Below, in pieces: positions 1 through 46,092 of a DNA stretch of 64,000 nt. Every line of letters begins with the position of its first letter. Positions within the stretch are counted from its first letter, which is position 1. Source of the DNA: Escherichia coli (lineage in GTDB: Bacteria; Pseudomonadota; Gammaproteobacteria; Enterobacterales; Enterobacteriaceae); assembly GCF_048403405.1 (NCBI RefSeq), contig NZ_CP183129.1, one strand, 5' to 3'. The notes beneath the pieces are model-generated. The model did not search any database. It had not been told where the DNA came from and saw only the letters and a program-made list of their open reading frames with translations. A program made the translations under genes and the position numbers.

Positions 1-158
1 GGTGATAGAAATAACTCACCATCCAGAGTTGAGAATCTCGGGGTGGCGAGACGTACAGGGTTCTCAACACCGGAGAGCAAAGAATCCGGCCCGACCGAAG
101 TCGGCCCCGTACGCCCCGCCATAATTCTGACGCGAAAAAGACGTGGCAATACAGTACG

Positions 159-286
159 CACAAAAAAACCGCTTGCGCGGTTATGCGCTTTGCTCTGTAT
201 CGGGTTGAGAATCCCGGCACCCGTTTTATGAGGTGCAGCGGAAATGTAACCTGACCGATTGAGGCATGGCAAGCGGTTTTTTTGTG
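159..286. repeat. 18-bp perfect inverted repeat pair (CACAAAAAAACCGCTTGC at 159-176, GCAAGCGGTTTTTTTGTG at 269-286) flanking 92 bp
   Basis: Read directly from the sequence; the two arms are exact reverse complements. Confidence 0.7.
160..183 (-). terminator. Terminator-like hairpin on the minus strand (AACCGC-GCAA-GCGGTT followed by T7)
   Basis: 6-bp stem, GCAA loop and a run of 7 T on the minus strand, about 120 nt downstream of the 305..604 ORF. It lies inside an open minus-strand frame, so its function is uncertain. Confidence 0.35.
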
Positions 287-304
287 TGTGCATGTTCTGG
301 TTTC

Positions 305-604
305 TTACTGGTTCAGAAAAAAATCAAAAACGTTATCGATGCGTTGCAGCAGCTCTTGCTGCATTGCTTCCGGCGTTTCCGGTTCGCCAGGTGCCCCCAG
401 CGTTGCGCAGAAATCAGCGATTTCATGATGGAGCGTGAGGCGAATGGCAGGAGCCGTGGTTCTGGCGTGCTCCAGCTGATCCAGCAGTGCCAGCACAGCA
501 GACGGCGAGAGCATTGCGCGAAATGCCAGTAATTTTTGAGGCGTTGCCATTCGTTGCAGGGCAAATGCCAGTTCGCGTAGCTTCTGGTGGTTGATGGTGC
601 TCAT
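305..604 (-). CDS. hypothetical prophage early-operon protein (99 aa)
   Basis: ORF in the early operon; start overlaps the upstream ORF stop by 4 nt (coupled). No recognisable family. Confidence 0.55.
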   Translation of the reverse strand: MSTINHQKLRELAFALQRMATPQKLLAFRAMLSPSAVLALLDQLEHARTTAPAIRLTLHHEIADFCATLGAPGEPETPEAMQQELLQRIDNVFDFFLNQ

Positions 605-846
605 GCTCTGGCTTCCTTCAGTAGCTGGTTAAACATGTTGGTAAGTGGATTGCCGCACCCGAACGGCATCGGGTTTATCTGGTAAGAAAAGCGACCGCCT
701 GTTTTGCGCTCTTTTCTTATGACTGAACCGCTGCGCCAGAGTCGGCGTAACTCCGCATTAATGGCTGTGGTTGGGGTATTCAGTGCTGCGGCGATTTCTC
801 CACCGCTACACCCCGGATTGGCAGCGATATAATCCAGAATGGTCAT
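601..846 (-). CDS. hypothetical prophage early protein (81 aa), possible small DNA-binding protein
   Basis: ORF coupled by 4-nt overlaps on both sides; basic, helix-rich composition. DNA-binding function is a guess. Confidence 0.5.
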   Translation of the reverse strand: MTILDYIAANPGCSGGEIAAALNTPTTAINAELRRLWRSGSVIRKERKTGGRFSYQINPMPFGCGNPLTNMFNQLLKEARA

Positions 847-1046
847 CTGCGTGACTCCTGTACCTGTCGGATAAGGTTCACCTGCACCACATTCGTGGCG
901 CAGAAGTAAGTGCCGTCAGTGAGATAGATGTGATGTGCATCCTTTTCTGAACGGTGTTTGTCGATTGTGGTAATCAGGCGTTCGTCGACTTCGTATTCAC
1001 GTCCTCTGGAGGTAAAACGAACGACAGGAAAATGCTTAATTGCCAT
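843..1046 (-). CDS. hypothetical prophage early protein (67 aa)
   Basis: ORF preceded by a strong Shine-Dalgarno (AAGGAGG) on the minus strand at about 1052-1058. Confidence 0.55.
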   Translation of the reverse strand: MAIKHFPVVRFTSRGREYEVDERLITTIDKHRSEKDAHHIYLTDGTYFCATNVVQVNLIRQVQESRR

Positions 1047-1132
1047 TACGCCTCCTTGGCGTATGCGAATACCTCCGCGAATGCGGATTGTTTTTACATT
1101 TTCTTATTTAACCTGTGGTTTTATTTGCTCTG

Positions 1133-1246
1133 TTATTCGCCAGTGAAAAAGCGTTCAATCTTTTTTACTGAATGAATAATTCGCATAATCCCAATGGCGC
1201 AGGCCACAGAAATAATCAGAACAAGCCATGAGATAAATATACTCAT
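1133..1246 (-). CDS. small hydrophobic peptide (37 aa, MSIFISWLVLIISVACAIGIMRIIHSVKKIERFFTGE), single predicted transmembrane helix
   Basis: Not in the ORF track (<60 aa). Its ATG overlaps the TGA of the upstream 80-aa ORF as ATGA; hydrophobic N-terminal helix then a basic tail. Translated manually from the reverse complement. Confidence 0.45.
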   Translation of the reverse strand: MSIFISWLVLIISVACAIGIMRIIHSVKKIERFFTGE

Positions 1247-1485
1247 GCGATATTCCCCAGCTTATACGGTTCAATATGTTCCCCGCATTCTGCGGCACAG
1301 ATTAGCTCGGAAAGTTCGTTAAGTGCATCCAGATCATCAGCGTAAAAAGCCACGTCATACAGACTCCGGATTGCCCTGGTCAATGAGTCACGGGCTGCAC
1401 GTTCAGCATGAGAGCCTGATGCACTTAAGCGAAAATAAAAACGCTCAAGTGCTTTGTTGATGAGTGTTTTATATTCTTTGCCCAT
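1243..1485 (-). CDS. hypothetical prophage early protein (80 aa)
   Basis: ORF with an AGGGTG Shine-Dalgarno 5 nt upstream; 11-nt gap to the upstream gene. Confidence 0.5.
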   Translation of the reverse strand: MGKEYKTLINKALERFYFRLSASGSHAERAARDSLTRAIRSLYDVAFYADDLDALNELSELICAAECGEHIEPYKLGNIA

Positions 1486-1496
1486 TGCAACACCCT

Positions 1497-1784
1497 TTAA
1501 TCTGCTTTCTGAATTTCAGCTTCTGAATCCATGCAAATAATTTCGATATAGGGTTCATTGCCATTAGCCTGGCGCGCTTTTTCAGCTTTGCTAATGATTT
1601 CTCGTACGGTCTGGTACGGAAGTTCCACAAGCAGTCGCGTGCCGTTCAGATAAACGTAAGTGGCTTCGTCGGCTCCGTTTTTACCCGCCGGAGCCACTCC
1701 ATCAATAGCGGATGCGCGTAATAACAGTTCACCGCGAAAATCAATAAAACGGATAAATACACCTTGTGCATGGTCTTTGGTCAT
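1497..1784 (-). CDS. hypothetical prophage early protein (95 aa; track ORF 1497..1844 trimmed to the internal ATG)
   Basis: The ATG at 1784 has an AGGTG Shine-Dalgarno and avoids a 50-nt overlap with the upstream ORF. The longer start at 1844 is less likely. Confidence 0.5.
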   Translation of the reverse strand: MTKDHAQGVFIRFIDFRGELLLRASAIDGVAPAGKNGADEATYVYLNGTRLLVELPYQTVREIISKAEKARQANGNEPYIEIICMDSEAEIQKAD

Positions 1785-1794
1785 AAAGCACCTG

Positions 1795-2136
1795 TTATAA
1801 ATCAGCCTGTTTAATAAAACTTTGTCCGCGAAGCAGACGATCAACCGTGCGTAGTGCTTCGTATAATGTGAAATCCTGCCCGAACTGATTTTCGCCGCTG
1901 CTTAGAGCAAAAATGCGGTTTCCAGTAAACGGGTTGCGTGGGCATTTGTGGACCACGATTCCAGCTTTCTCAATCAGCCAGGCATGCTCGCCGATTTGTT
2001 TTACTGGGTAGCCATCCGGCGTTGCGTGTGTATCACTCAGGCTGTAGCGGATGTTGCTGCGTGATGCACTGGTAGCGAAACGATTAGCGTGACGTTCAGC
2101 ACCATTACGAAAGCGTGAATTACGTTGCTGTTTCAT
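1795..2136 (-). CDS. hypothetical prophage early protein (113 aa)
   Basis: ORF whose ATG sits 1 nt after the stop of the preceding small ORF (TAAcATG). Confidence 0.55.
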   Translation of the reverse strand: MKQQRNSRFRNGAERHANRFATSASRSNIRYSLSDTHATPDGYPVKQIGEHAWLIEKAGIVVHKCPRNPFTGNRIFALSSGENQFGQDFTLYEALRTVDRLLRGQSFIKQADL

Positions 2137-2137
2137 G

Positions 2138-2245
2138 TTAAAGACTCTGTACAGATTTAATTATTCCGGCATAGCGGCCGAACTCAAAATATTTGCGATT
2201 AAATCGCATCGCATTGTTTTCACGTTGTGCGGACTGCTGGTTCAT
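2138..2245 (-). CDS. small basic peptide (35 aa, MNQQSAQRENNAMRFNRKYFEFGRYAGIIKSVQSL)
   Basis: Not in the ORF track. Its ATG overlaps the TGA of the upstream hydrophobic peptide as ATGA, and its stop is 1 nt before the next gene's ATG. Confidence 0.4.
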   Translation of the reverse strand: MNQQSAQRENNAMRFNRKYFEFGRYAGIIKSVQSL

Positions 2246-2349
2246 TTTCGTTTGCCTCCGCACATGAGAATTACGCCGCTTAAGAGGTAACCGAAGTTAA
2301 TTGATAGTATTACAATTAACATAAGGTCCAATTTGTCCATGCCACACAT
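2242..2349 (-). CDS. small hydrophobic membrane peptide (35 aa, MCGMDKLDLMLIVILSINFGYLLSGVILMCGGKRK)
   Basis: Not in the ORF track. A GAGGG Shine-Dalgarno sits 6 nt upstream of the ATG at 2349 (alternative in-frame ATG at 2361 and 2340). One hydrophobic helix followed by a basic KRK tail. Confidence 0.45.
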   Translation of the reverse strand: MCGMDKLDLMLIVILSINFGYLLSGVILMCGGKRK

Positions 2350-2388
2350 AATTACCCTCATTGCAGTAGTTGTGGTTTATCAGGTTTC

Positions 2389-2595
2389 TCACCCGATAAA
2401 CCAGATAACAAACGCTATAAACATCGCCCCAATAGCTGCCGGGAAAAGCCCTTTGGTATAAGCGGCGATATATTCAATGCTGAGTTCAATAAAGCGTTCT
2501 TCATGTCCCGTTAACTTACGAAACAAATAGATCGCTATTACGCCTATCTCAATAAAAACAAGGGTCAGAATGGCGCTGATGATATGGCTGGTCAT
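2389..2595 (-). CDS. small predicted two-helix membrane protein (68 aa) immediately downstream of cox
   Basis: ORF starting 6 nt after the Cox stop; two hydrophobic segments separated by a charged loop. Confidence 0.55.
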   Translation of the reverse strand: MTSHIISAILTLVFIEIGVIAIYLFRKLTGHEERFIELSIEYIAAYTKGLFPAAIGAMFIAFVIWFIG

Positions 2596-2601
2596 TTATG
2601 A

Positions 2602-2889
2602 CTAAAGCCCCAGCCACAACAACCATGCATCGCGGCGTTCTTTCGGTTGCTCAAAAAACGCTTTGCGCATGCCTTCGTTAAATGCTGGCAGATATACCCA
2701 GTTTTCTGATGCACGCGTCTTTACTGAACCTGGTTTCACAAAGTCAATTGTCGGTAGCTTTGCTGCGTCAATCATGGTTCTGACTGTGGATTCCTTGCGG
2801 CCGATCATCTTGGCGAATAGTTGATATGGCACCGCTTCAAGTGGATATGGTGCTACCTGAATGAAGCCCCCAAGCTCTGATTCGCTCAT
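2602..2889 (-). CDS. P2 Cox-like protein (excisionase / early-promoter repressor), 95 aa
   Basis: Recognisable similarity to phage P2 Cox (e.g. WVYLPA and WL.WLGL motifs) and divergent position next to the C-like repressor. Confidence 0.8.
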   Translation of the reverse strand: MSESELGGFIQVAPYPLEAVPYQLFAKMIGRKESTVRTMIDAAKLPTIDFVKPGSVKTRASENWVYLPAFNEGMRKAFFEQPKERRDAWLLWLGL

Positions 2890-2911
2890 TGTGGTAATCT
2901 CCCTAATTCGT

Positions 2912-2947
2912 TCGAATGGCTCAAAATGGCTTATATCGGCTTATTTG
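2912..2947. promoter_or_regulatory. three 10-bp-phased direct repeats (GGCTCAAAAT, GGCTTATATC, GGCTTATTTG) in the C/cox intergenic region: candidate operators
   Basis: GGCT recurs at 2918, 2928 and 2938. P2-type C repressors are known to bind direct repeats, so these are plausible operators; this is not demonstrated. Confidence 0.4.
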
Positions 2948-3002
2948 AGTGTTTTTATGTTTGTGCCCGATGTGGCATGTTGCGATGGAGGATATGCCCG
3001 AT

Positions 3003-3323
3003 ATGGCATCTTTGTCAAGCATGGGTGAAAAATTTCGCCTGATTCGTGAAGCAGAAGGTATGACCCGCCAGGAGTTTGCGGATTGTGTTGGGCTGCCTTA
3101 TGGGACGGTAACTAACTATGAGGTGAGGGGGAAGCAAGTAACAGAGGGTGCCTTACTTAAGGTTACGAAACACCCTAAATTTAAGAAATATGCTTATTGG
3201 TTATCAACAGATGAAACGATGCCGGAGGTTGGGCAAATTTCTCCGGCTCTCTCTCTTGATGGTTCCTGCAATTCGGAGGGAGATCGTGTTTCAACCGAAA
3301 CAATCCAAAAATTATCCCGCTGA
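3003..3323 (+). CDS. P2 C-like immunity repressor (HTH), about 106 aa
   Basis: Track ORF 2949..3323 trimmed to the ATG at 3003 (GGAGGA Shine-Dalgarno upstream). HTH region and C-terminal tail resemble P2 C (GLPYGT.., KYAYWL.., GQISPAL). Confidence 0.8.
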   Translation: MASLSSMGEKFRLIREAEGMTRQEFADCVGLPYGTVTNYEVRGKQVTEGALLKVTKHPKFKKYAYWLSTDETMPEVGQISPALSLDGSCNSEGDRVSTETIQKLSR

Positions 3324-3419
3324 GGCCAGAAAACTGGTTAGACCTGCTTTTTGTCTGGTCTGATTATTGCTGGAAAGAGGCTGGAGAAATTGTAGAGCGG
3401 TTCATTGGAGGGCTTCGCA

Positions 3420-4424
3420 ATGTCGATTAAGAAGCTCGAAGATGGTCGTTATTTGCTGGACATCAGGCCGAACGGACGCAAGGGAAAGCGCGTGCGTAAG
3501 GTATTTGACAAAAAATCGGTAGCGGTGGCCACTGAACGCTACATCATGGCGAACGCTGAAAAGCGGGAATATATACAGGGCTACCGTGATCGTCGAACGC
3601 TAAATGATTTGCTTGAGTTGTGGTGGATGTATCACGGCCAGCACAGGCGTAAGGCAGAAGAAGACCGAAAACAACTGCGCAACATAATCAATGAGCTTGG
3701 CGCTGATATGCAGGCTGTGGATCTTGATAAGCTAAAAATTATCGCGTGGCGTTCTCAAAAGATAGCTGATGGATTGAAACCGTCATCTGCTAACAGATAC
3801 ATGAATCGGTTATCCGGAATGTTTACCGTACTGAAGAAAATAGGCCTCTGGGATGCAGAACATCCGGTAAGGGGAATTTCTATTCTTTATGTATCTCCAC
3901 GAGAAATGGCTTTCCTGTCCCAGAAGGAAGTGGCGTTATTGCTCGATACACTGGAGGGCGATTACTGGCGTGTTGCGCTTTTGTGTTTAAGCACGGGGGC
4001 GCGCTGGAGTGAAGCCTGTAAGCTTCGTGGTGAACAGATAGTTCATAACCGTGTAACGTTTCTTGAAACCAAAAATGGCCGAAAGAGAACAGTGCCAATT
4101 TCGCAGGCAGTTTGTGAGGCGATCAAAACCAGAGAAACAGGCGGCTTGTTTGAGGTGAAGTACCGGGAATTCTGCTTGGCGCTGAAAAGAGTTAAGCCCG
4201 ATTTGCCAAAAGGCCAGGCTGCACATGTGCTGCGGCATACGTTCGCCAGCCATTTTGTGATGAACGGAGGAAACATTATTGCGCTTCAGAAGATTCTTGG
4301 CCACGCAACCATTCAGCAAACAATGGCATATGCACATTTTGCACCGGATTACCTGCAGGATGCGGTGGCCCTTAATCCGCTGAAAGGTGGCGTGAGTGTC
4401 CACGCAGTGTCCACGGGGGATTAA
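3420..4424 (+). CDS. int: P2-family tyrosine integrase (334 aa)
   Basis: Strong similarity to P2 Int across its length (MSIKKLEDGRY.., LCLSTGARWSEA, IVHNRVTF, HVLRHTFASHF, YAHFAPDYLQDA). Start taken at the ATG at 3420, 7 nt after GGAGGG. Confidence 0.9.
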   Translation: MSIKKLEDGRYLLDIRPNGRKGKRVRKVFDKKSVAVATERYIMANAEKREYIQGYRDRRTLNDLLELWWMYHGQHRRKAEEDRKQLRNIINELGADMQAVDLDKLKIIAWRSQKIADGLKPSSANRYMNRLSGMFTVLKKIGLWDAEHPVRGISILYVSPREMAFLSQKEVALLLDTLEGDYWRVALLCLSTGARWSEACKLRGEQIVHNRVTFLETKNGRKRTVPISQAVCEAIKTRETGGLFEVKYREFCLALKRVKPDLPKGQAAHVLRHTFASHFVMNGGNIIALQKILGHATIQQTMAYAHFAPDYLQDAVALNPLKGGVSVHAVSTGD

Positions 4425-4451
4425 TTTTATATAGCCTGAAACGGCTTAAAG

Positions 4452-4486
4452 GGCGATACTGAATAACAATTTTTCAGTATTGCCCG
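4452..4486. repeat. imperfect 13-bp inverted repeat (GGGCGATACTGAA ... TTCAGTATTGCCC) in the int-pdxB junction
   Basis: Read from the sequence; one mismatch. Could be an int terminator or an att-associated site. Confidence 0.4.
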
Positions 4487-4582
4487 TCTAAATGGTTATG
4501 TTGTTATCTGTATGATTATGAATGTTTTTTCAGATTAAACAGCAGTTTGCAAATGGGCGTTTGTTAATAAAGGAGCCTTAGA

Positions 4583-5740
4583 TTGTCAGAGACTGAAAAA
4601 TGGTTAAAAATCCTTGTTGATGAAAATATGCCTTATGCCCGCGACTTATTTAGCCGTTTGGGTGAGGTGACCGCGGTTCCCGGGCGTCCAATTCCCGTGG
4701 CTCAACTGGCAGACGCGGATGCGATGATGGTGCGTTCGGTCACGAAAGTGAATGAATCTTTGCTGGCAGGAAAACCCATTAAATTTGTTGGCACTGCCAC
4801 CGCGGGGACCGACCATGTCGATGAAGCGTGGTTAAAGCAGGCGGGAATTGGTTTTTCCGCGGCACCTGGCTGTAATGCGATTGCGGTGGTGGAATATGTT
4901 TTCTCCTCACTGCTGATGCTTGCCGAACGCGATGGATTTTCACTGCACGAGCGTACCGTGGGGATCGTGGGCGTTGGTAACGTTGGTCGCCGTTTACAGG
5001 CGCGACTGGAAGCGTTAGGGATTACAACCTTGCTTTGCGATCCGCCCCGCGCCGACCGTGGGGATGAGGGGGATTTCCGCTCGCTGGATGAATTAGTTCA
5101 GCATGCGGATATTCTGACTTTCCATACGCCACTCTTTAAAGATGGTCCGTACAAAACGCTGCATCTGGCGGATGAAAAACTGATCCGCAGCCTGAAGCCG
5201 GGAGCGATTCTGATTAACGCCTGCCGTGGCGCAGTTGTCGATAATACCGCCCTGCTGACCTGCCTGAACGAAGGCCAGAAGTTAAGCGTAGTGCTGGATG
5301 TCTGGGAAGGCGAACCGGAACTTAACGTGGAATTGCTGAAAAAAGTGGATATCGGCACGCCGCATATCGCAGGCTATACCCTGGAAGGTAAAGCACGCGG
5401 TACTACGCAAGTGTTTGAAGCTTATAGCAAGTTTATTGGGCATGAACAGCACGTTGCGCTGGATACATTACTGCCCGCGCCAGAGTTTGGTCGCATTACG
5501 CTGCATGGCCCGCTCGATCAGCCAACGCTGAAAAGGCTGGTGCATTTGGTGTATGATGTGCGCCGCGATGACGCACCGCTGCGTAAAGTCGCCGGGATAC
5601 CGGGTGAGTTCGATAAACTGCGCAAAAACTATCTTGAGCGCCGTGAATGGTCATCTCTGTATGTGATTTGTGATGACGCCAGCGCGGCATCATTGCTGTG
5701 TAAACTGGGTTTTAACGCCGTTCATCATCCGGCACGTTAA
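4583..5740 (+). CDS. pdxB: erythronate-4-phosphate dehydrogenase
   Basis: Translation matches E. coli PdxB. The TTG at 4583 is 7 nt after an AGGAG Shine-Dalgarno; the exact start is uncertain. Confidence 0.93.
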
Positions 5741-5805
5741 TCTCTTCTTCATGCTCTCTGCTGTAATATTGGCAGGGAGCTTTGCTATTTCTGGAGTAAA
5801 CCACC

Positions 5806-6819
5806 ATGTCTGAAGGCTGGAACATTGCCGTCCTGGGCGCAACTGGCGCTGTGGGCGAAGCCCTGCTTGAAACGCTGGCTGAACGTCAGTTCCCGGTTGG
5901 GGAAATTTATGCACTGGCACGTAACGAAAGCGCAGGCGAACAACTGCGCTTTGGTGGTAAGACAATCACCGTGCAGGATGCTGCTGAATTCGACTGGACG
6001 CAGGCGCAGCTGGCGTTTTTTGTCGCAGGCAAAGAAGCTACCGCTGCCTGGGTTGAAGAAGCGACCAACTCAGGTTGTCTGGTGATCGACAGCAGCGGAT
6101 TGTTTGCTCTCGAACCTGACGTACCGCTGGTGGTGCCGGAAGTAAACCCGTTTGTACTGACCGATTACCGCAACCGGAATGTCATCGCCGTACCGGACAG
6201 TCTGACCAGCCAACTGCTGGCGGCACTGAAACCGTTAATCGATCAGGGCGGTTTGTCGCGTATCAGCGTTACCAGCCTGATTTCAGCCTCCGCCCAGGGC
6301 AAAAAAGCGGTCGATGCGTTAGCGGGGCAGAGTGCGAAATTACTCAATGGCATTCCGATTGACGAAGAAGATTTCTTCGGGCGTCAGCTGGCGTTCAACA
6401 TGCTGCCGTTACTGCCGGATAGCGAAGGTAGCGTGCGTGAAGAACGTCGTATCGTTGACGAAGTACGCAAAATCCTGCAGGACGAAGGGCTGATGATTTC
6501 GGCAAGCGTCGTCCAGGCACCGGTATTCTACGGTCATGCCCAGATGGTCAACTTTGAAGCACTGCGTCCGCTGGCAGCAGAAGAAGCGCGTGATGCGTTT
6601 GCTCAGGGCGAAGATATTGTGCTCTCTGAAGAGAACGAATTCCCGACTCAGGTGGGGGATGCTTCTGGTACGCCGCATCTTTCCGTTGGCTGCGTACGTA
6701 ATGACTACGGTATGCCGGAGCAAGTTCAGTTCTGGTCGGTGGCCGATAACGTTCGCTTTGGCGGCGCGCTGATGGCAGTAAAAATCGCCGAGAAACTGGT
6801 GCAGGAGTATCTGTACTAA
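5806..6819 (+). CDS. usg: USG-1 protein (aspartate-semialdehyde dehydrogenase homolog)
   Basis: 337-aa ORF, conserved pdxB-usg-truA order. Confidence 0.92.
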
Positions 6820-7631
6820 TGTCCGACCAGCAACAACCGCCAGTTTATAAAATTGCGCTGGGCATTGAGTACGACGGCAGTAAGTATTACGGCTGGCAAC
6901 GGCAGAACGAAGTCCGCAGTGTGCAGGAGAAGCTGGAAAAGGCGCTCTCCCAGGTGGCGAACGAACCGATCACCGTCTTCTGCGCCGGGCGTACTGACGC
7001 AGGTGTACACGGCACCGGGCAGGTTGTGCATTTCGAAACGACCGCGCAGCGCAAAGACGCTGCGTGGACGTTGGGCGTAAATGCGAATTTACCTGGTGAC
7101 ATCGCCGTGCGTTGGGTTAAAGCTGTACCTGATGATTTTCATGCCCGATTTAGCGCCACGGCTCGCCGTTATCGCTACATCATCTACAATCATCGGCTGC
7201 GCCCGGCGGTATTGAGTAAAGGGGTAACCCATTTTTACGAACCGCTGGACGCTGAACGGATGCATCGGGCCGCGCAATGCTTGCTGGGCGAGAATGATTT
7301 CACCTCGTTCCGTGCGGTGCAGTGCCAGTCCCGAACCCCGTGGCGCAACGTTATGCATATTAATGTCACGCGTCACGGTCCTTATGTGGTGGTAGATATC
7401 AAAGCGAATGCCTTTGTACATCATATGGTCAGGAATATTGTCGGCAGCCTGATGGAAGTCGGTGCCCACAACCAGCCGGAGAGCTGGATAGCAGAGTTGC
7501 TGGCGGCAAAGGACAGAACGCTGGCGGCAGCAACGGCAAAAGCGGAAGGGCTGTATCTGGTCGCGGTGGATTACCCTGACCGGTATGATCTTCCAAAACC
7601 GCCAATGGGCCCGCTATTTCTGGCGGACTAA
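6819..7631 (+). CDS. truA: tRNA pseudouridine(38-40) synthase
   Basis: 270-aa ORF overlapping the usg stop; matches TruA. Confidence 0.93.
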
Positions 7632-31180: not shown

Positions 31181-33013
31181 GTGAACGGTGAATTGATTTG
31201 GGTTCTTTCATTACTGGCCGTTGCCATCGTCTTGTTTGCGACGGGCAGAGTGCGTATGGATGCGGTCGCTTTGTTTGTTATTGTCGCGTTTGCATTAAGC
31301 GGAACGCTGACGGTCCCCGAAGTATTTTCCGGCTTTTCCGATCCTAACGTTGTCCTGATTGCCGCCTTGTTCATTATTGGCGATGGTTTGGTCCGTACCG
31401 GTGTTGCCACTGTAATGGGGACATGGCTGGTCAAAGTGGCGGGCAACAGTGAAATCAAAATGTTGGTTTTGTTGATGCTGACCGTCGCGGGGCTTGGCGC
31501 GTTTATGAGTTCAACCGGCGTTGTCGCTATCTTTATTCCTGTGGTGTTAAGCGTTGCCATGCGTATGCAAACGTCGCCGTCGCGCCTGATGATGCCGTTA
31601 AGTTTTGCCGGGCTGATAAGCGGCATGATGACGCTGGTGGCGACGCCGCCGAACCTGGTAGTCAACAGTGAATTGCTGCGTGAAGGCTATCATGGTTTTA
31701 GTTTCTTTAGCGTAACACCTATTGGCCTGGTCGTGCTGGTGCTGGGTATTTTGTATATGTTAGTGATGCGTTTCATGCTGAAAGGGGATACCCAGACCCC
31801 GCAGCGCGAAGGCTGGACGCGTCGAACCTTTCGCGATCTTATCCGTGAATATCGACTGACCGGGCGTGCGCGTCGTCTGGCTATTCGCCCCGGTTCGCCA
31901 ATGATTGGTCAACGGCTGGACGATCTCAAACTACGTGAGCGTTATGGCGCTAACGTCATCGGTGTTGAACGCTGGCGGCGTTTTCGTCGCGTTATCGTGA
32001 ATGTTAACGGGGTTTCTGAATTTCGCGCGCGTGACGTTTTGCTTATTGATATGTCTGCGGCTGATGTCGATCTCCGGCAATTTTGTAGTGAGCAGTTGCT
32101 GGAGCCGATGGTACTACGCGGCGAGTATTTTTCTGACCAGGCCCTTGATGTGGGCATGGCAGAGATTTCATTAATTCCTGAGTCAGAACTGATTGGTAAA
32201 TCGGTGCGCGAAATTGGTTTTCGTACCCGCTACGGACTGAATGTGGTGGGGCTAAAGCGCAATGGCGTGGCGCTGGAAGGTTCGCTGGCGGATGAGCCTC
32301 TGCTGCTGGGCGATATCATCCTGGTTGTTGGTAACTGGAAACTGATCGGTATGCTGGCCAAACAGGGCCGCGACTTCGTAGCGCTGAACTTACCGGAAGA
32401 GGTGAGTGAAGCATCGCCCGCGCACAGCCAGGCACCCCATGCGATTTTCTGTCTGGTGCTAATGGTGGCGTTAATGCTGACCGATGAAATTCCTAATCCT
32501 GTTGCCGCTATCATCGCCTGCCTGCTGATGGGGAAATTCCGCTGTATCGATGCTGAAAGCGCCTATAAATCCATTCACTGGCCGAGCATTATTTTGATCG
32601 TTGGGATGATGCCGTTTGCTGTGGCATTACAGAAAACGGGAGGTGTCGCGCTGGCGGTGAAAGGGCTGATGGACATTGGCGGCGGTTACGGGCCACATAT
32701 GATGCTGGGTTGTTTGTTTGTCTTGTCGGCGGTTATTGGGCTATTTATCTCTAATACCGCAACGGCGGTGTTGATGGCTCCGATTGCGCTGGCTGCTGCC
32801 AAAACGATGGGTGTGTCGCCTTATCCATTTGCGATGGTCGTGGCGATGGCAGCATCCGCCGCCTTTATGACGCCGGTTTCTTCACCTGTTAACACACTGG
32901 TTTTAGGTCCGGGAAATTACAGCTTCAGTGACTTTGTGAAGTTGGGGGTACCGTTCACCATTATCGTGATGGCGGTTTGTGTGGTGATGATCCCGATGCT
33001 GTTTCCGTTTTGA
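31181..33013 (+). CDS. yfbS: putative transporter with paired TrkA-C (RCK_C) domains
   Basis: 610-aa membrane protein. Confidence 0.88.
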
Positions 33014-33016
33014 CAA

Positions 33017-33085
33017 GAGCCTGATGTCGCATCCGGCGCTTATTGCCTGATGTCGCATCCGGCGCTTATTGCCTGATGCGACGCA
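33017..33085. repeat. REP elements (GCCTGATGTCGCATCCGGCGCTTATT, two copies, plus a partial third)
   Basis: Direct repeat read from the sequence between convergent yfbS and yfbR. Confidence 0.85.
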
Positions 33086-33097
33086 GACTCCGGCTGC

Positions 33098-33697
33098 TTA
33101 CAGCGGTGAATCCTGGCTAATCTCATCGAGCGAAAGATGGAAGCTGGGAACAAAGACTTCCATGAAGTAGTCCATCTCCTGGCTGCGGCGCGCTTCAAGC
33201 GTCGCTTCCAGTCGCGTTTTTGCCAGCAAGAATTCATTATTTCCCGCCGCGAGTTCTTCCAGACATTTCAGATATGCACACAGTGCATCTGCCTGTTTCA
33301 CCAGCGATTTCTCTTCATCGCTATATGCATGCTCGTCAATTAACGGCGCAAAAATATCCTGCAGCTCTTCCGGAACCATATCGACCAGTTTTTGCTGAGC
33401 GATTTTTTCAATCGCCTTGTATTCCTGAGCGATTTGCGAATTGAAGTATTTCACCGGAGTAGGGAGATCGCCGGTGAGCACTTCTGAGGCATCGTGGTAC
33501 ATCGCCAGTAAAGCGATACGTTCGGCGTTGACATTACCGCCAAATTTCCGATTTTTGATAGCTGCCAGCGCATGGGCGACCATCGCTACCTGCAAACTGT
33601 GTTCGGACACATTTTCCGTCCGCACGTTGCGCATCAGCGGCCAGCGGTTAATGAGTTTCAGGCGGGAGAGATGGGCAAAAAAATGGCTCTGTTTCAT
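33098..33697 (-). CDS. yfbR: HD-domain 5'-deoxynucleotidase
   Basis: 199-aa HD-domain ORF. Confidence 0.9.
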
Positions 33698-33780
33698 AGT
33701 GACCTTACGTATGATGACATCATCAGGTCATTGTGGCGGGATAACACTGCCGGATGCAATCTCCGGCAGTGAAATTAAGA

Positions 33781-34998
33781 TTACAGCTGATGATAACCAG
33801 AAAGGAAACGCGCGAACTTACTCAAAGACAGCTCGATATCATCGACACGCGGTAGCGTGACAATGCGGAAGTGATCCGGCCACGGCCAGTTGAATGCCGT
33901 CCCTTGCACCAACAGAACTTTTTCCTGCAACAGGAAATCCAGCACCATTTTCTGATCGTCGTGAATATTAAAGCGTTTGGCGTCGATTTTCGGGAACATG
34001 TACAGCGCACCGCGCGGTTTCACGCAGGAAACGCCCGGAATATCGTTGATCAATTCCCACGCGCGGTTACGCTGCTCATAAAGACGCCCGCCGGGAGTAA
34101 TAAATTCACTGATGCTCTGATAACCGCCTAGTGCAGTCTGAATGGCGTGTTGCGCAGGAACGTTAGCACACAGGCGCATTGAGGCCAGCATTTCCAGACC
34201 TTCGATGTAACCTTTGGCGTGTTTTTTCGGCCCGTTCAACACCATCCACCCCTGACGGAAGCCAGCAACGCGGTACGTTTTCGACAGTCCGTTAAAGGTA
34301 ATGGTCAGCAGATCAGGTGCCAGCGGCGCAATTGAGTGATGCTCAGCGTCGTCGTAGAGAATTTTGTCATAAATTTCATCGGCGAAGATAATGAGATTAT
34401 GCTGGCGTGCAATCTCCACTATCTCCATTAAAAGCTCTTTGGAATATACCGCGCCAGTTGGGTTATTTGGGTTGATAATAACGATCCCACGCGTACGAGG
34501 CGTAATTTTAGCGCGAATATCATCAAGGTCCGGGAACCAGTCAGAGGATTCATCGCAAAGATAATGCACCGCTTTACCGCTGGAGAGCGAAACCGCCGCG
34601 GTCCATAGTGGGTAATCAGGTGCAGGAACCAACATTTCGTCGCCGCTGTTCAGCAATGCCTGCATTGCCTGAACGATAAGCTCCGATACACCATTGCCGA
34701 TGTAAATATCTTCCACGGTAACATCACGCATGCCACGAGCCTGGTAGTGCTGCATGATGGCTTTACGCGCGGAGTAAAGCCCTTTGGAATCGCAATACCC
34801 TTGAGCGGTAGGCAGGTTGCGAATCACGTCAACGAGGATTTCATCTGGCGCGTCAAAACCGAACGGGGCAGGGTTGCCGATGTTCAGTTTCAGTACCTTG
34901 TTACCTTCTTCTTCCAGGCGTTTTGCTTCTTTCAGCACCGGACCACGGATGTCGTAACAGACATTCTCTAATTTGCTGGATTTTTCAATGGGGGACAT
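33781..34998 (-). CDS. alaA: glutamate-pyruvate aminotransferase
   Basis: 405-aa class I aminotransferase matching AlaA/YfbQ. Confidence 0.93.
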   Translation of the reverse strand: MSPIEKSSKLENVCYDIRGPVLKEAKRLEEEGNKVLKLNIGNPAPFGFDAPDEILVDVIRNLPTAQGYCDSKGLYSARKAIMQHYQARGMRDVTVEDIYIGNGVSELIVQAMQALLNSGDEMLVPAPDYPLWTAAVSLSSGKAVHYLCDESSDWFPDLDDIRAKITPRTRGIVIINPNNPTGAVYSKELLMEIVEIARQHNLIIFADEIYDKILYDDAEHHSIAPLAPDLLTITFNGLSKTYRVAGFRQGWMVLNGPKKHAKGYIEGLEMLASMRLCANVPAQHAIQTALGGYQSISEFITPGGRLYEQRNRAWELINDIPGVSCVKPRGALYMFPKIDAKRFNIHDDQKMVLDFLLQEKVLLVQGTAFNWPWPDHFRIVTLPRVDDIELSLSKFARFLSGYHQL

Positions 34999-35914
34999 GA
35001 ATCTTGACCTTTTTTGCTGTTATCGCCACTCCCTGCCGTGGAAGTCAGCTTAGAACAATGTACTCCCCCAGGACGGCGTTTTGAAGGTCTGCAGAATAAG
35101 ATTTTGCCAGAGGGGAAGACTCGATTGTGCTGTTAATAACTTAATAATGGCAAAATAATGAGGTGTATATGCTTAGTAATTAATGTTATGTAGTGAATTG
35201 TTCTGATTCTTAATTGTGAGCGTGGTTTTTTTATCTGTAAGATAATTGTTTGAAAATGCCTCGTTTAAGAATTCACTAATGAATCGTGATGATGATATTT
35301 CCGCATTACGGAGAGTTTAACAGCGTGATGATTTCCGAGGTGTCGTAATGGGTGCAAGGTGTGAAACTATTGTTAAGCGGGATTAATGTATGAGGATGAT
35401 GCTAATTAATTATTATTTAATATTCAAAAAGGTTTTGTTGTGCTTATTAATAATAGAAGATTACTTTGCCTAACATAACATAACTTTGCATCAGATAATT
35501 CGCAATGACCCTTATAAATAAAAGGTTTTTGGGGTAAAATGCTCGCATAAATGACGGATCCCTGCTCTTGATGCCGCCTCACCATTGCTGTTTGTACGTG
35601 TTCGCGTATGACCAGCGATGCTGCACGAGAGTGGAACAAGGACTCACATTTACATTTATACAAACACGCGCATGTCATAAATACAAAAGAGTGAGTAACT
35701 TAATAGATATGCGATTCCTGAAGATATATTCTGTGATCTACTTCAGGCATTATAACGGAACAATGTGAGTCGCTTTTTTAGTGCAACTCATATGCATTTT
35801 TACTTTCGTCCGGGTTCCGGATGAAACTGCCAGGGAGGCACATTACAAATGGAATTGCTTGTTTGTGTGTGCACAGCATTAACCAGCTCAGTATGAGCCG
35901 CCAGTAAGTGATAA

Positions 35915-36856
<942 letters not shown>

Positions 36857-36898
36857 TCGACGGACCATAGATAATTTCTGAGACAATAGTGTAAAAAC

Positions 36899-36938
36899 GA
36901 GCCGCTGGGGGTGTTTTAAACCCCAGCGGCTTTTTTTA
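36899..36938 (+). terminator. rho-independent terminator after lrhA
   Basis: GCCGCTGGGG-GTGTTTTAAA-CCCCAGCGGC followed by TTTTTTT. Confidence 0.85.
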
Positions 36939-37484
36939 GTAAAAAGCCTTCCTCGTATCGTGCAGAACGTACAAAACTGTTCATTTTTCAATCACCAGAG
37001 ATTCACGTCCCGAACGCACAAATAATCGCCTGAAAAAAATCACCTGCTACAATGATGTTAAAAAATACGTAAATTTGTTGCTGCGTTTTTGTTATGGAAT
37101 GACAAAAGCGTGTCACAGATCAAGAAAATACTCTCTTTTGGGGGGAGGAATCGACACAAATTCCTGTCAAAATAGACCCGTATTTTTTCCATTGCTTCAC
37201 AACGGACACGATTCAACAACATCTAATTATCCTGGAGTCGTCAAGGATCTGGGGTGAAAGGGCATTAAATGCTAATGGTGTTGATATTATGTAAACTAAT
37301 GTGAAGAAGCTTTTGTTAAAGTTGACAAAAGGTTATAGAAAGGAGTAAAAGACCACATCAATTAGCTGTATAAAAGAGTTTCTACAGTGATTGTAAGGTT
37401 TTTTTTATTCCTCCCCATGAATCGATGTGGCGTCCATCTGCCGTGAAGAGCAGTGAATCTGGCGCTACTTTTGATGAGTAAGCA

Positions 37485-37928
37485 ATGAGTATGTCAACAT
37501 CCACTGAAGTCATCGCTCATCACTGGGCATTCGCTATCTTTCTTATCGTTGCCATTGGCCTGTGTTGCCTGATGCTGGTAGGCGGTTGGTTTTTAGGCGG
37601 TCGCGCACGCGCAAGGTCGAAAAACGTTCCGTTTGAATCCGGTATCGACTCGGTCGGCTCCGCCCGCTTACGCCTGTCCGCCAAGTTTTATCTGGTGGCC
37701 ATGTTCTTCGTTATCTTCGACGTTGAAGCGCTGTATCTGTTCGCATGGTCAACCTCTATCCGCGAAAGCGGCTGGGTAGGCTTTGTGGAAGCTGCAATTT
37801 TTATTTTTGTGTTACTGGCAGGTCTGGTTTATCTGGTGCGTATTGGCGCGCTGGACTGGACGCCCGCGCGTTCACGCCGCGAGCGTATGAACCCGGAAAC
37901 GAACAGTATCGCTAATCGTCAACGCTAA
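37485..37928 (+). CDS. nuoA: NADH-quinone oxidoreductase subunit A
   Basis: 147 aa. Confidence 0.95.
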
Positions 37929-37943
37929 CCGCGAGGCATTAAG

Positions 37944-38606
37944 ATGGATTATACGCTCACCCGCATAGATCCCAACGGTGAGAACGACCGTTACCCCCTG
38001 CAAAAGCAGGAGATCGTAACCGACCCTCTGGAGCAAGAAGTTAATAAAAACGTGTTTATGGGCAAGCTCAATGACATGGTTAACTGGGGTCGTAAAAACT
38101 CAATTTGGCCGTATAACTTCGGTCTTTCCTGCTGTTACGTTGAGATGGTGACTTCGTTTACCGCGGTGCATGACGTGGCGCGTTTTGGCGCAGAAGTATT
38201 GCGAGCTTCGCCGCGTCAGGCTGACCTGATGGTCGTTGCAGGAACCTGCTTTACAAAAATGGCACCGGTTATTCAGCGTCTGTATGACCAGATGCTGGAA
38301 CCAAAATGGGTTATCTCAATGGGTGCCTGTGCCAACTCCGGCGGTATGTACGATATTTATTCCGTTGTGCAGGGCGTCGATAAATTCATCCCGGTTGATG
38401 TGTATATCCCGGGCTGCCCTCCGCGTCCTGAAGCGTACATGCAGGCACTGATGCTGTTGCAGGAATCTATCGGTAAAGAACGTCGTCCGCTCTCCTGGGT
38501 GGTTGGCGATCAGGGCGTTTATCGCGCCAATATGCAATCAGAGCGCGAACGCAAGCGCGGTGAACGCATTGCCGTAACCAACCTGCGTACACCTGACGAG
38601 ATTTAA
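37944..38606 (+). CDS. nuoB: NADH-quinone oxidoreductase subunit B
   Basis: 220 aa with CCxxE and GCPP Fe-S motifs. Confidence 0.95.
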
Positions 38607-38711
38607 TTTGCGCCTGTCGGCAAAGGAATTTTTCTTCGCTTATTCCTAAATCTATTTCGCGAAGCTTACTGCGCCGACAGTCACCACGGACCATTTGCAA
38701 TGGTGAACAAT

Positions 38712-40502
38712 ATGACCGACTTAACCGCGCAAGAACCCGCCTGGCAGACCCGCGATCATCTTGATGATCCGGTGATTGGCGAACTGCGCAACCGTTTTGG
38801 GCCGGATGCCTTTACTGTTCAGGCGACTCGCACCGGGGTTCCCGTTGTGTGGATCAAGCGTGAACAATTACTGGAAGTTGGCGATTTCTTAAAGAAACTG
38901 CCGAAACCTTACGTCATGCTGTTTGACTTACACGGCATGGACGAACGTCTGCGCACACACCGCGAAGGGTTACCTGCCGCGGATTTTTCCGTTTTCTACC
39001 ATCTGATTTCTATCGATCGTAACCGCGACATCATGTTGAAGGTAGCGCTGGCAGAAAACGACCTGCACGTACCGACCTTTACCAAACTGTTCCCGAACGC
39101 TAACTGGTATGAGCGTGAGACCTGGGATCTGTTTGGTATTACTTTCGACGGTCACCCGAACCTGCGCCGCATCATGATGCCGCAAACCTGGAAAGGTCAC
39201 CCGCTGCGTAAAGATTACCCGGCGCGCGCTACCGAATTCTCGCCGTTTGAGCTGACCAAAGCCAAACAGGATCTGGAGATGGAAGCCCTGACCTTCAAAC
39301 CGGAAGAGTGGGGGATGAAGCGCGGCACCGAAAACGAGGACTTCATGTTCCTCAACCTCGGTCCGAACCACCCGTCGGCGCACGGTGCTTTCCGTATCGT
39401 TTTGCAGCTCGATGGCGAAGAGATTGTCGACTGCGTACCAGACATCGGCTACCACCACCGTGGCGCGGAGAAAATGGGCGAGCGCCAGTCCTGGCATAGC
39501 TACATTCCGTACACCGACCGTATCGAATACCTCGGCGGCTGCGTTAACGAAATGCCTTACGTGCTGGCGGTAGAGAAACTGGCCGGGATCACCGTGCCGG
39601 ATCGCGTTAACGTCATTCGCGTAATGCTTTCTGAGCTGTTCCGCATCAACAGCCACCTGCTGTACATCTCGACCTTTATTCAGGACGTCGGCGCAATGAC
39701 GCCAGTGTTCTTCGCCTTTACCGATCGTCAGAAAATTTACGATCTGGTGGAAGCAATCACTGGTTTCCGTATGCACCCGGCGTGGTTCCGTATTGGCGGC
39801 GTAGCGCACGACCTGCCGCGTGGCTGGGATCGCCTGCTGCGTGAGTTCCTCGACTGGATGCCGAAACGTCTGGCGTCTTACGAGAAAGCGGCGCTGCAAA
39901 ACACTATTCTGAAAGGTCGTTCCCAGGGCGTTGCCGCCTATGGCGCGAAAGAGGCGCTGGAGTGGGGCACCACTGGCGCGGGCCTGCGCGCCACCGGGAT
40001 CGACTTCGACGTGCGTAAGGCGCGTCCGTATTCTGGCTATGAAAACTTCGACTTTGAAATCCCGGTTGGTGGTGGTGTTTCTGATTGCTACACCCGCGTA
40101 ATGCTGAAAGTGGAAGAGCTGCGCCAGAGTCTGCGCATTCTTGAGCAGTGCCTCAACAACATGCCGGAAGGCCCGTTCAAAGCGGATCACCCGCTGACCA
40201 CGCCGCCGCCGAAAGAGCGCACGTTGCAACATATCGAAACCCTGATCACCCACTTCCTGCAAGTGTCGTGGGGTCCGGTGATGCCAGCCAATGAATCTTT
40301 CCAGATGATTGAGGCGACCAAGGGGATCAACAGTTACTACCTGACCAGCGACGGTAGCACCATGAGTTATCGCACCCGTATCCGTACGCCGAGTTATGCG
40401 CATTTGCAGCAAATTCCGGCGGCGATCCGCGGCAGCCTGGTGTCTGACCTGATTGTTTATCTGGGCAGTATCGATTTTGTTATGTCAGATGTGGACCGCT
40501 AA
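38712..40502 (+). CDS. nuoC: NADH-quinone oxidoreductase fused subunit C/D
   Basis: 596 aa from [11 protein letters not shown]..; fused NuoCD typical of E. coli. Confidence 0.95.
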
Positions 40503-40504
40503 TT

Positions 40505-41005
40505 ATGCACGAGAATCAACAACCACAAACCGAGGCTTTTGAGCTGAGTGCGGCAGAGCGTGAAGCGATTGAGCACGAGATGCACCACTACGAAGACCCG
40601 CGTGCGGCGTCCATTGAAGCGCTGAAAATCGTTCAGAAGCAGCGTGGCTGGGTGCCGGATGGCGCGATCCACGCGATCGCCGATGTGCTGGGTATTCCGG
40701 CGAGCGACGTCGAAGGTGTGGCAACGTTTTATAGCCAGATCTTCCGCCAGCCGGTTGGTCGCCATGTGATCCGTTATTGCGACAGCGTGGTCTGTCATAT
40801 CAACGGTTATCAGGGTATTCAGGCGGCGCTCGAGAAAAAGCTGAACATCAAACCAGGGCAAACGACATTTGACGGTCGCTTTACGCTGCTGCCAACTTGC
40901 TGCCTGGGGAACTGTGATAAAGGGCCAAACATGATGATCGATGAGGATACTCACGCACATCTGACCCCGGAAGCGATCCCTGAACTGCTGGAGCGGTATA
41001 AATGA
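40505..41005 (+). CDS. nuoE: NADH-quinone oxidoreductase subunit E
   Basis: 166 aa. Confidence 0.95.
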
Positions 41006-45118: not shown

Positions 45119-46092
45119 GTTGGATATCACCGGAACTGATTGAGATCCTGCTGACCATCCTCAAAGCGGTGGTGATCCTGCTGGTGGTTGTCACCTGTGG
45201 GGCATTCATGAGCTTTGGCGAACGTCGCCTGCTGGGTCTGTTCCAGAACCGTTACGGACCTAACCGTGTTGGCTGGGGCGGTTCGCTCCAGCTGGTCGCG
45301 GACATGATCAAGATGTTCTTCAAAGAAGACTGGATCCCGAAATTCTCGGATCGCGTCATCTTTACCCTGGCACCGATGATTGCCTTTACCTCGCTGCTGC
45401 TGGCCTTTGCGATTGTGCCAGTCAGCCCAGGTTGGGTGGTTGCCGACCTGAACATCGGGATTTTGTTCTTCCTGATGATGGCCGGTCTGGCGGTCTACGC
45501 GGTGCTGTTTGCGGGCTGGTCAAGTAACAACAAATACTCGCTGCTGGGGGCGATGCGTGCTTCTGCGCAGACTCTGAGCTACGAAGTGTTCCTCGGGCTT
45601 TCCCTGATGGGCGTGGTGGCGCAGGCCGGTTCATTCAACATGACCGACATCGTTAACAGCCAGGCGCATGTGTGGAACGTCATCCCGCAATTCTTTGGTT
45701 TTATTACCTTTGCCATCGCGGGCGTGGCGGTGTGTCACCGTCACCCATTTGACCAGCCGGAAGCCGAGCAGGAACTGGCGGATGGTTACCACATTGAATA
45801 TTCCGGCATGAAGTTCGGTCTGTTCTTCGTGGGCGAATACATCGGGATTGTGACCATCTCTGCACTGATGGTGACGCTGTTCTTCGGTGGCTGGCAAGGC
45901 CCGTTGTTACCGCCATTCATCTGGTTCGCGCTGAAAACCGCGTTCTTTATGATGATGTTCATTTTGATTCGTGCGTCGTTACCGCGTCCGCGTTATGACC
46001 AGGTAATGTCCTTCGGCTGGAAAATCTGCCTGCCGCTGACGCTGATCAACTTGCTGGTAACGGCGGCTGTCATTCTCTGGCAGGCGCAATAA
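45115..46092 (+). CDS. nuoH: NADH-quinone oxidoreductase subunit H
   Basis: 325-aa membrane subunit. Confidence 0.95.

Follow-up and report, generated by a model that had tools for sequence, protein, structure and literature searches.

What is the DNA that precedes pdxB in the stretch of Escherichia coli contig NZ_CP183129.1 analysed here (64,000 nucleotides, referred to as the window), where does it end, and what has become of the gene into which it runs? The explanation that best accounts for positions 1-4626 as a whole is that they are the right-hand end (immunity region, early operon, int and attR) of a P2-like temperate prophage of the P88/PhiSM type (Peduoviridae, genus Xuanwuvirus), integrated within codons 2-8 of pdxB. 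We give this explanation, which includes a replacement start for pdxB, a C/Cox switch and an RNA cassette, a probability of roughly 0.9. The element, its family, its integration site and the rescue of pdxB are already known from the literature and the reference databases.

A P2-like prophage of the P88/PhiSM type

The immunity and integration end of the element comprises the following features (ORF, open reading frame):

3420-4424, plus strand: int, P2-type tyrosine integrase of 334 amino acids (longest ORF 3405-4424; P2-like start MSIKKLEDGRY at 3420; phrog_1, E 2e-75)
3003-3323, plus strand: C-type immunity repressor with a helix-turn-helix, 106 amino acids, inside a longer ORF 2949-3323 (phrog_147, transcriptional regulator)
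2965-3018, both strands: Pe/Pc switch with 14-bp direct repeats and a promoter-like site
2602-2889, minus strand: cox, 95 amino acids, predicted excisionase and repressor of Pc (phrog_272, 'Cox-like excisionase and repressor', E 1.5e-38)

A preliminary description of this DNA had assigned it to a P2-family prophage from the order of int, C and cox, and the assignment was borne out. In pairwise BLASTP comparisons Int was 50% identical to P2 Int from end to end (336 amino acids, E 2e-121), C was 37% identical to P2 C over 83 amino acids (E 3e-23) and Cox was 56% identical to P2 Cox over 78 amino acids (E 9e-34). The order is also that of P2 (NC_001895), with int and C on one strand, int being downstream of C, and cox and the early genes on the other. 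Two copies of the 14-bp direct repeat GCCCGATRTGGCAT (2965-2978 and 2996-3009) bracket the -10 of a promoter-like site on the minus strand that points toward cox (-35 at 3018-3013, -10 at 2994-2989) and that matched the consensus at 10 of 12 positions in a promoter scan. In P2 the annotated O1, -10 and O2 are arranged likewise, and there too the -35 falls within the initial codons of C. By this analogy the repeats are putative C operators flanking the -10 of Pe, and lysogeny would be held by the P2 C-type repressor acting on them. Cox, to judge from its homology, would serve both in excision and in the repression of Pc. The element differs from P2 in its attachment site, which is locI in P2 and pdxB here, in the absence of a B gene directly after cox and in its other small early ORFs; its relatives moreover have ParM/ParR-like genes.

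A megablast search against phage records showed that the closest phage relatives are complete Peduoviridae genomes of 35-37 kb. The assignment to Xuanwuvirus refers to 4.57 kb within the window, not to a whole genome: positions 13-4582 were 98.3% identical to Escherichia phage PhiR44_2 (PV340564) and 96.8% identical to Xuanwuvirus P884B11 (NC_049391), int, C, cox and attP being shared with both. Citrobacter phage Shae_phiSM (PhiSM; OR565851) showed 93% nucleotide identity across 81% of positions 1-4582; the present lysogen is a natural one, in E. coli, and some early genes differ from those of PhiSM. Similarity to phage P88 (NC_026014), approximately 91%, was limited to the early-operon half (13-2115). 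P88 shares this operon and the RNA cassette with an epsilon-like gene described below, but it has a different int/C/cox module, in which C is 32% identical and the int DNA approximately 74%.

The G+C content is 0.42-0.49 over positions 1000-4600, as against approximately 0.55 in pdxB-usg-truA. The preliminary description had placed the element in the interval that lies between flk and pdxB in K-12 and had called it strain-specific accessory DNA. Both statements hold: the K-12 site is empty, and among 5426 complete E. coli genomes int is joined to pdxB (attR) in only 299 (approximately 5.5%). At least 80% of window positions 1-6000 was found in 286 of these genomes, and a matching attL junction in 301.

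Complete prophages in related genomes

The window begins within the element, and the remainder of the phage had been expected to its left. We inspected three genomes that carry this end at 97-99.5% identity (strains 5283, CDF6 and AVS0786), and there it lies, between flk and the counterpart of the first base of the window, together with a second att and variable cargo hotspots, one of them with IetAS defence genes. Each of the three genomes contains a prophage of approximately 35-38 kb between flk and pdxB, with a P2-type replication endonuclease (A), ParM/ParR-like genes and the full P2 late set, that is portal, terminase, scaffold, capsid, lysis, baseplate, tail and D genes, and ogr. P2-type replication and late genes are also present in phages P884B11 and P88.

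Cargo differs among the three prophages at two classical P2 hotspots. The Q-side hotspot of strain 5283 (32183-35511, between parMR and portal) holds an AAA ATPase and an S8 peptidase, which match the PADLOC models of the anti-phage system IetA/IetS (E 3e-89 and 6e-41). At the same place CDF6 has a DUF4760 gene and a hypothetical protein, and AVS0786 a single hypothetical protein. The hotspot on the attL side differs as well (methyltransferase and Com, TagO-like protein and zinc ribbon, RES toxin), with Hok in all three. The ParM/ParR-like plasmid segregation genes were found just after the A gene in all Xuanwuvirus relatives (36161-37120 and 35845-36156 in strain 5283; 8856-10131 in L088). 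In a P2-like phage that integrates such genes are unusual, and they hint at a role in stabilisation or at an episomal stage.

It might be argued that the element in the present genome is a decayed remnant of which only the int-C-cox-early end is left. The left part lies outside the window, which begins at position 1, and the completeness of this particular copy is thus an extrapolation from its relatives. One of them, moreover, is decaying. In AVS0786 (36912-40223) the A gene is frameshifted, the region of orf99, the RNA cassette and epsilon is deleted and a partial ash-family gene is found there; its tail fibre region is rearranged, and in CDF6 the tail-fibre genes are frameshifted. While these points tell against an intact prophage, the ORFs across 305-4424 are all intact, the closest genomes, which are 99.3-99.5% identical, contain the whole element, and the counts of attL (301) and attR (299) are nearly equal. 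A remnant seems to us unlikely.

Integration inside pdxB

The right-hand boundary of the prophage and the gene beyond it are made up as follows:

4395-4415, plus strand: tandem AGTGTCCACG repeats in the last int codons, putative arm-type Int sites of the P' arm
4425-4606, plus strand: phage-derived att arm with a hairpin, a Shine-Dalgarno sequence AAGGAG (4570-4575) and a TTG (4583)
4607-4626, plus strand: att core AAAATCCTTGTTGATGAAAA, 20 bp forming pdxB codons 2-8, common to attR, attL of strain 5283 and attB of K-12
4583-5740, plus strand: chimeric pdxB of 385 amino acids, with eight phage-encoded codons (MSETEKWL) and then native pdxB from Lys2

The preliminary description had the prophage inserted immediately upstream of pdxB, with a junction of 158 bp between int and the gene. 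The distance from the int stop codon to the TTG was given correctly; the boundary had to be revised. Homology to phage attP continues past the int stop and past 4582 to approximately 4628, and genomes with an empty site align from 4607 onward only (query position 1208 of 3400-4900). The 158-bp stretch 4425-4582 is therefore phage attP-arm DNA and the TTG at 4583, with which the ORF starts, is phage-encoded. The insertion point falls within the first eight codons of pdxB and not ahead of the gene.

The 5' end of pdxB in K-12 reads GTG AAA ATC CTT GTT GAT GAA AAT ATG. The corresponding attR in the window reads TTA AAA ATC CTT GTT GAT GAA AAT ATG; in other words, TTA replaces the native GTG. attL of strain 5283 (acacaaacGTG AAA ATC CTT GTT GAT GAA AA / a aac aaa gat) is preceded by an intact native flk-pdxB intergenic region, and the native pdxB promoter, ribosome-binding site and GTG remain there, 37.6 kb away. 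Insertion would have occurred by Int-mediated site-specific recombination at the 20-bp core within codons 2-8. It would shift the native promoter, ribosome-binding site and start codon to attL, which would consist of GTGAAAATCCTTGTTGATGAAAA followed by phage DNA. In strain 5283 an IS1 element (6854-7551) is located in the native intergenic DNA beside attL and parts flk from the orphaned fragment with the pdxB promoter and GTG. This fragment now opens a 14-codon ORF (MKILVDEKNKDLIY, then a stop) that reads into the phage end.

The same site has been described for PhiSM, with a 17-bp attP ATCCTTGTTGATGAAAA inside the pdxB 5' end and a phage TTG preceded by AAGGAG at -7 (Magaziner et al. 2019, PMC6456863). 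The published 17 bp fall within the 20-bp core found here, and attB, TTG and Shine-Dalgarno sequence are the same. The two accounts differ in that the PhiSM paper reports 17 bp and the loss of AAA, whereas here 20 bp are shared and AAA (Lys2) is kept. That paper also gives ATG as the native start of K-12, which is GTG in the K-12 sequence.

Both att arms contain repeated motifs. The tandem AGTGTCCACG repeats at the end of int have a counterpart in P2, where the 3' end of int overlaps GTCCAC arm repeats arranged in tandem and the site annotated 'Int P' arm' reads AGTGTCCACACAGTGTCCAC. On the other arm, attL of strain 5283 and attP of P884B11 have ATAAAAGGATTT...TGTCCACGCAGTGACCAC, and P2 has ATAAAAGGATTT...CGTCCACACATTGACCAC. 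By comparison with P2 we take the AGTGTCCACG and TGTCCACGCAGTGACCAC repeats as probable arm-type Int binding sites.

Just after int a strong hairpin without a U-tract is predicted by folding (4451-4485, 13-bp stem); it might serve as a terminator, as a stabiliser or within a Cox/IHF region. The loop and 3' arm of this hairpin (TAACAATTTTTCAGT) show 93% complementarity to ACTGAAAAATGGTTA (4592-4606), which directly precedes the att core within the new leader codons of pdxB. The att arm also contains five to six copies of CTGAAWAA-like motifs. These elements could be protein sites (Cox, IHF or Int core-type) or an RNA switch acting on the TTG start.

A proposed phage-encoded start for pdxB

The site in pdxB is occupied in 5.5% of genomes, from many sources. 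In the phage arm AAGGAG is followed after 7 nt by a TTG in frame with pdxB, the predicted product being native from Lys2 onward. This chimeric PdxB is 98% identical to K-12 PdxB over 378 amino acids and has no lesions, Leu8 taking the place of the native GTG start. Downstream, pdxB is followed by usg, truA and dedA. The in-frame TTG and the AAGGAG 7 nt upstream are kept in every copy examined, namely the window, strain 5283, P884B11 and two IMG/VR contigs (L018, L035). In the IMG/VR search with Int most contigs end at the int stop, and the few with downstream DNA, such as these two, are near-identical; where integrases are 80-82% identical, both the C-terminus and the att region differ. For the present copy, attR would thus provide an AAGGAG-N7-TTG start and a PdxB with seven extra N-terminal residues, and the lysogen would be prototrophic. 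PhiSM lysogens of MG1655 are prototrophic and grow on minimal medium (Magaziner et al. 2019, PMC6456863).

Several points count against such a start. The promoter scan revealed no convincing sigma-70 site for pdxB in 4425-4582 and gave only a weak one inside the ORF. The promoter proposed for pdxB in the PhiSM paper (TTGCAA...TAAAGG; PMC6456863) is not one that we can endorse, since its -10 would fall on the Shine-Dalgarno sequence. The RefSeq annotation (PGAP) starts pdxB of lysogens at an internal ATG (4628 in the window), giving 370 amino acids without KILVDEN, and the same call is seen in three relatives (at 45372 in strain 5283, 44462 in CDF6 and 44276 in AVS0786). Given this call, the TTG at 4583 is a putative start, proposed from the sequence. 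The internal-ATG call is probably a systematic start-site error in approximately 5% of E. coli genomes. As to transcription, read-through from Pc-C-int is a reasonable guess for lysogens, a weak phage promoter being the alternative.

The same points could be turned into a different explanation, in which integration inactivates or cripples pdxB and lysogens live by bypass routes or on external vitamin B6. The native promoter, ribosome-binding site and GTG are after all displaced to attL, the phage arm has no strong promoter and the PdxB called by PGAP is 8 residues shorter. This is very hard to reconcile with the conserved TTG and consensus AAGGAG, the undamaged body of PdxB, the number and variety of the genomes occupied and the growth of MG1655(PhiSM) on minimal medium, and we consider it most improbable.

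A P4-type RNA cassette in the early operon

The apparently non-coding positions 1-304, about which the preliminary description was silent, carry an RNA cassette on the minus (early-operon) strand, with Rfam matches above the gathering score:

162-236, minus strand: isrK / P4-seqA-like RNA with the upstream targets UUCUCAAC and AGAGCAAAG (RF01394, 63.1 bits, gathering score 50)
39-126, minus strand: C4 / P4-CI-type antisense RNA (RF01695, 78.5 bits, gathering score 45, E 9e-15, full length)
28-35, minus strand: first half, UUCUCAAC, of the downstream C4 target, an 8-nt Watson-Crick complement of C4 loop 2

The second half of the downstream target, GAGCAAAGAGG, covers the Shine-Dalgarno sequence of the next gene, just beyond the window start, as seen in strain 5283. 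The C4-like RNA folds with -47.6 kcal/mol (z -4.9), and the isrK-like RNA has a z of -3.1. Promoter-like sites precede both RNAs (149-121 before C4, 272-243 before isrK; two found as against 0.1 expected), and an intrinsic terminator of isrK is predicted at 182-167. A LexA box near these promoters was considered and is not supported, just a TACTGTAT half-site being visible by eye.

The C4 loops, CUUUGCUCU and GUUGAGAA, are perfect complements (7-9 nt) of all four target sites. P884B11 and CDF6 have a different C4 specificity, with CUUGUGUAG and CUGCGAA as loops, and all four of their targets are changed to match. Together with P4 there are three matched types of loop and target (window/5283, P884B11/CDF6 and P4), and on sequence grounds this co-variation is compensatory covariation across heteroimmune types.

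In strain 5283 (cassette and gene at 40496-40980) the next gene starts 18 nt past the position of the window edge, with its ATG directly after the target. Its product of 76 amino acids matches the Pfam family Derepression (PF25738, E 8e-8) and is 32% identical to P4 epsilon. Among the prophages this epsilon-like protein is 96-97% conserved although their C repressors share only 32-48%, so it may be active against a broad range of C-type repressors. The cassette and the epsilon-like gene were present in all nine Xuanwuvirus-type records that were matched at full length. Many Stx phages have immI-like regions that resemble the RNA part by itself. In the P2 early region the same Rfam models gave no C4 or isrK match, and no epsilon-like gene is annotated. 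In RefSeq, P884B11 has a 205-amino-acid coding sequence (NC_049391, 31202-31819) named 'transcriptional regulator' that is drawn over the epsilon-like ORF (ATG at 31513) as well as isrK and C4; this call is probably spurious, masking the real features.

In satellite P4 the same models find the isrK-C4 pair again, with order and spacing unchanged, at the seqA region and the CI RNA; the equivalence of isrK with seqA and of C4 with CI has been published (PMC3632133, PMC4825925). Here, too, an epsilon homologue follows downstream in the relatives. The immI region of P1 and P7 (c4 - icd - ant) and the immunity region of P4 (seqA - CI RNA - seqC ... epsilon) have in common two antisense loops, each with an upstream and a downstream target, the downstream target covering the ribosome-binding site of the next ORF, as in the present cassette. 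P4 acts by transcription termination and P1 by a translational block, and either is a candidate here. Unlike that of P4, the cassette belongs to the early operon of a P2-like phage of helper type, in which a protein repressor is already present, and the epsilon-like gene directly follows the target.

Since the isrK-C4 pair and an epsilon homologue are hallmark parts of P4, one might ask whether the element is a P4-like satellite, or some other integrative island that has a P2-like integrase. The same DNA is, however, contained in complete myovirus genomes, 35-37 kb long, that possess A as well as the capsid, tail and lysis genes of P2, and no P4 alpha, sid, delta or psu is annotated in those elements. 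A satellite or island is scarcely credible, the least probable of the explanations considered here.

For the P88/PhiSM-type prophage itself, the antisense loops would pair with the ribosome-binding site of the epsilon-like gene and most likely silence an antirepressor in the lysogen. By analogy with P1 immI and P4 an RNA-gated antirepressor is likely, and such a device fits what is reported of P88, which can be induced chemically, and of PhiSM, which is spontaneously active. The wider proposal, that a P4-type RNA immunity switch (seqA/isrK - CI/C4 - seqC) is present in full in P88/PhiSM-type phages and gates an epsilon-type antirepressor, is put forward more tentatively, with odds that we judge to be somewhat short of even. 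In the searchable literature we found no description of a C4/isrK cassette or of epsilon in P2-like or Xuanwuvirus phages.

Other ORFs of the early operon

Between cox and the RNA cassette the minus strand carries a series of small ORFs:

2389-2595, minus strand: hydrophobic ORF of 68 amino acids directly after cox (phrog_14475, E 2e-41)
1795-2136, minus strand: early ORF of 113 amino acids, DUF4761 (phrog_2492; RefSeq name DUF4761)
1497-1784, minus strand: early ORF of 95 amino acids (phrog_3800, E 1e-60)
1243-1485, minus strand: early ORF of 80 amino acids, DUF4754 (phrog_2549; RefSeq name DUF4754 in relatives)
843-1046, minus strand: early ORF of 67 amino acids (phrog_3459, E 1e-45)
601-846, minus strand: small winged-helix / MarR-like regulator of 81 amino acids (phrog_1687, E 2e-31; annotated as a coding sequence in relatives)
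305-604, minus strand: early ORF of 99 amino acids (phrog_4144, E 4e-62; annotated as a coding sequence in relatives)

None of these small ORFs had an NCBIfam or PADLOC match. The 250-bp gap between the 68-residue ORF and the DUF4761 ORF (2137-2388) has neither a convincing ORF nor an Rfam match; in the annotation of P884B11 two ORFs of 35 amino acids occupy the equivalent position.

Significance

The prophage itself is a routine and common accessory element. Two of its features are poorly served by annotation pipelines, which mis-call pdxB of lysogens as a protein of 370 amino acids from an internal ATG in place of the chimeric ORF, and which put spurious ORFs over the RNA genes of the cassette or leave the RNAs unannotated. 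The sole potentially new lesson is the RNA-controlled epsilon-like antirepressor in a helper-type phage, which bears on the cross-talk between P2 and P4 and on the induction of P2-like prophages. If the proposal is true, helper-type phages with an RNA-gated epsilon would be inducible, unlike P2. Through the epsilon-like protein they could also relieve repression in other P2-like prophages, or disturb P4 satellites that share the RNA logic. The arrangement would then suggest that the P4 immunity and derepression cassette has been exchanged with helper phages.

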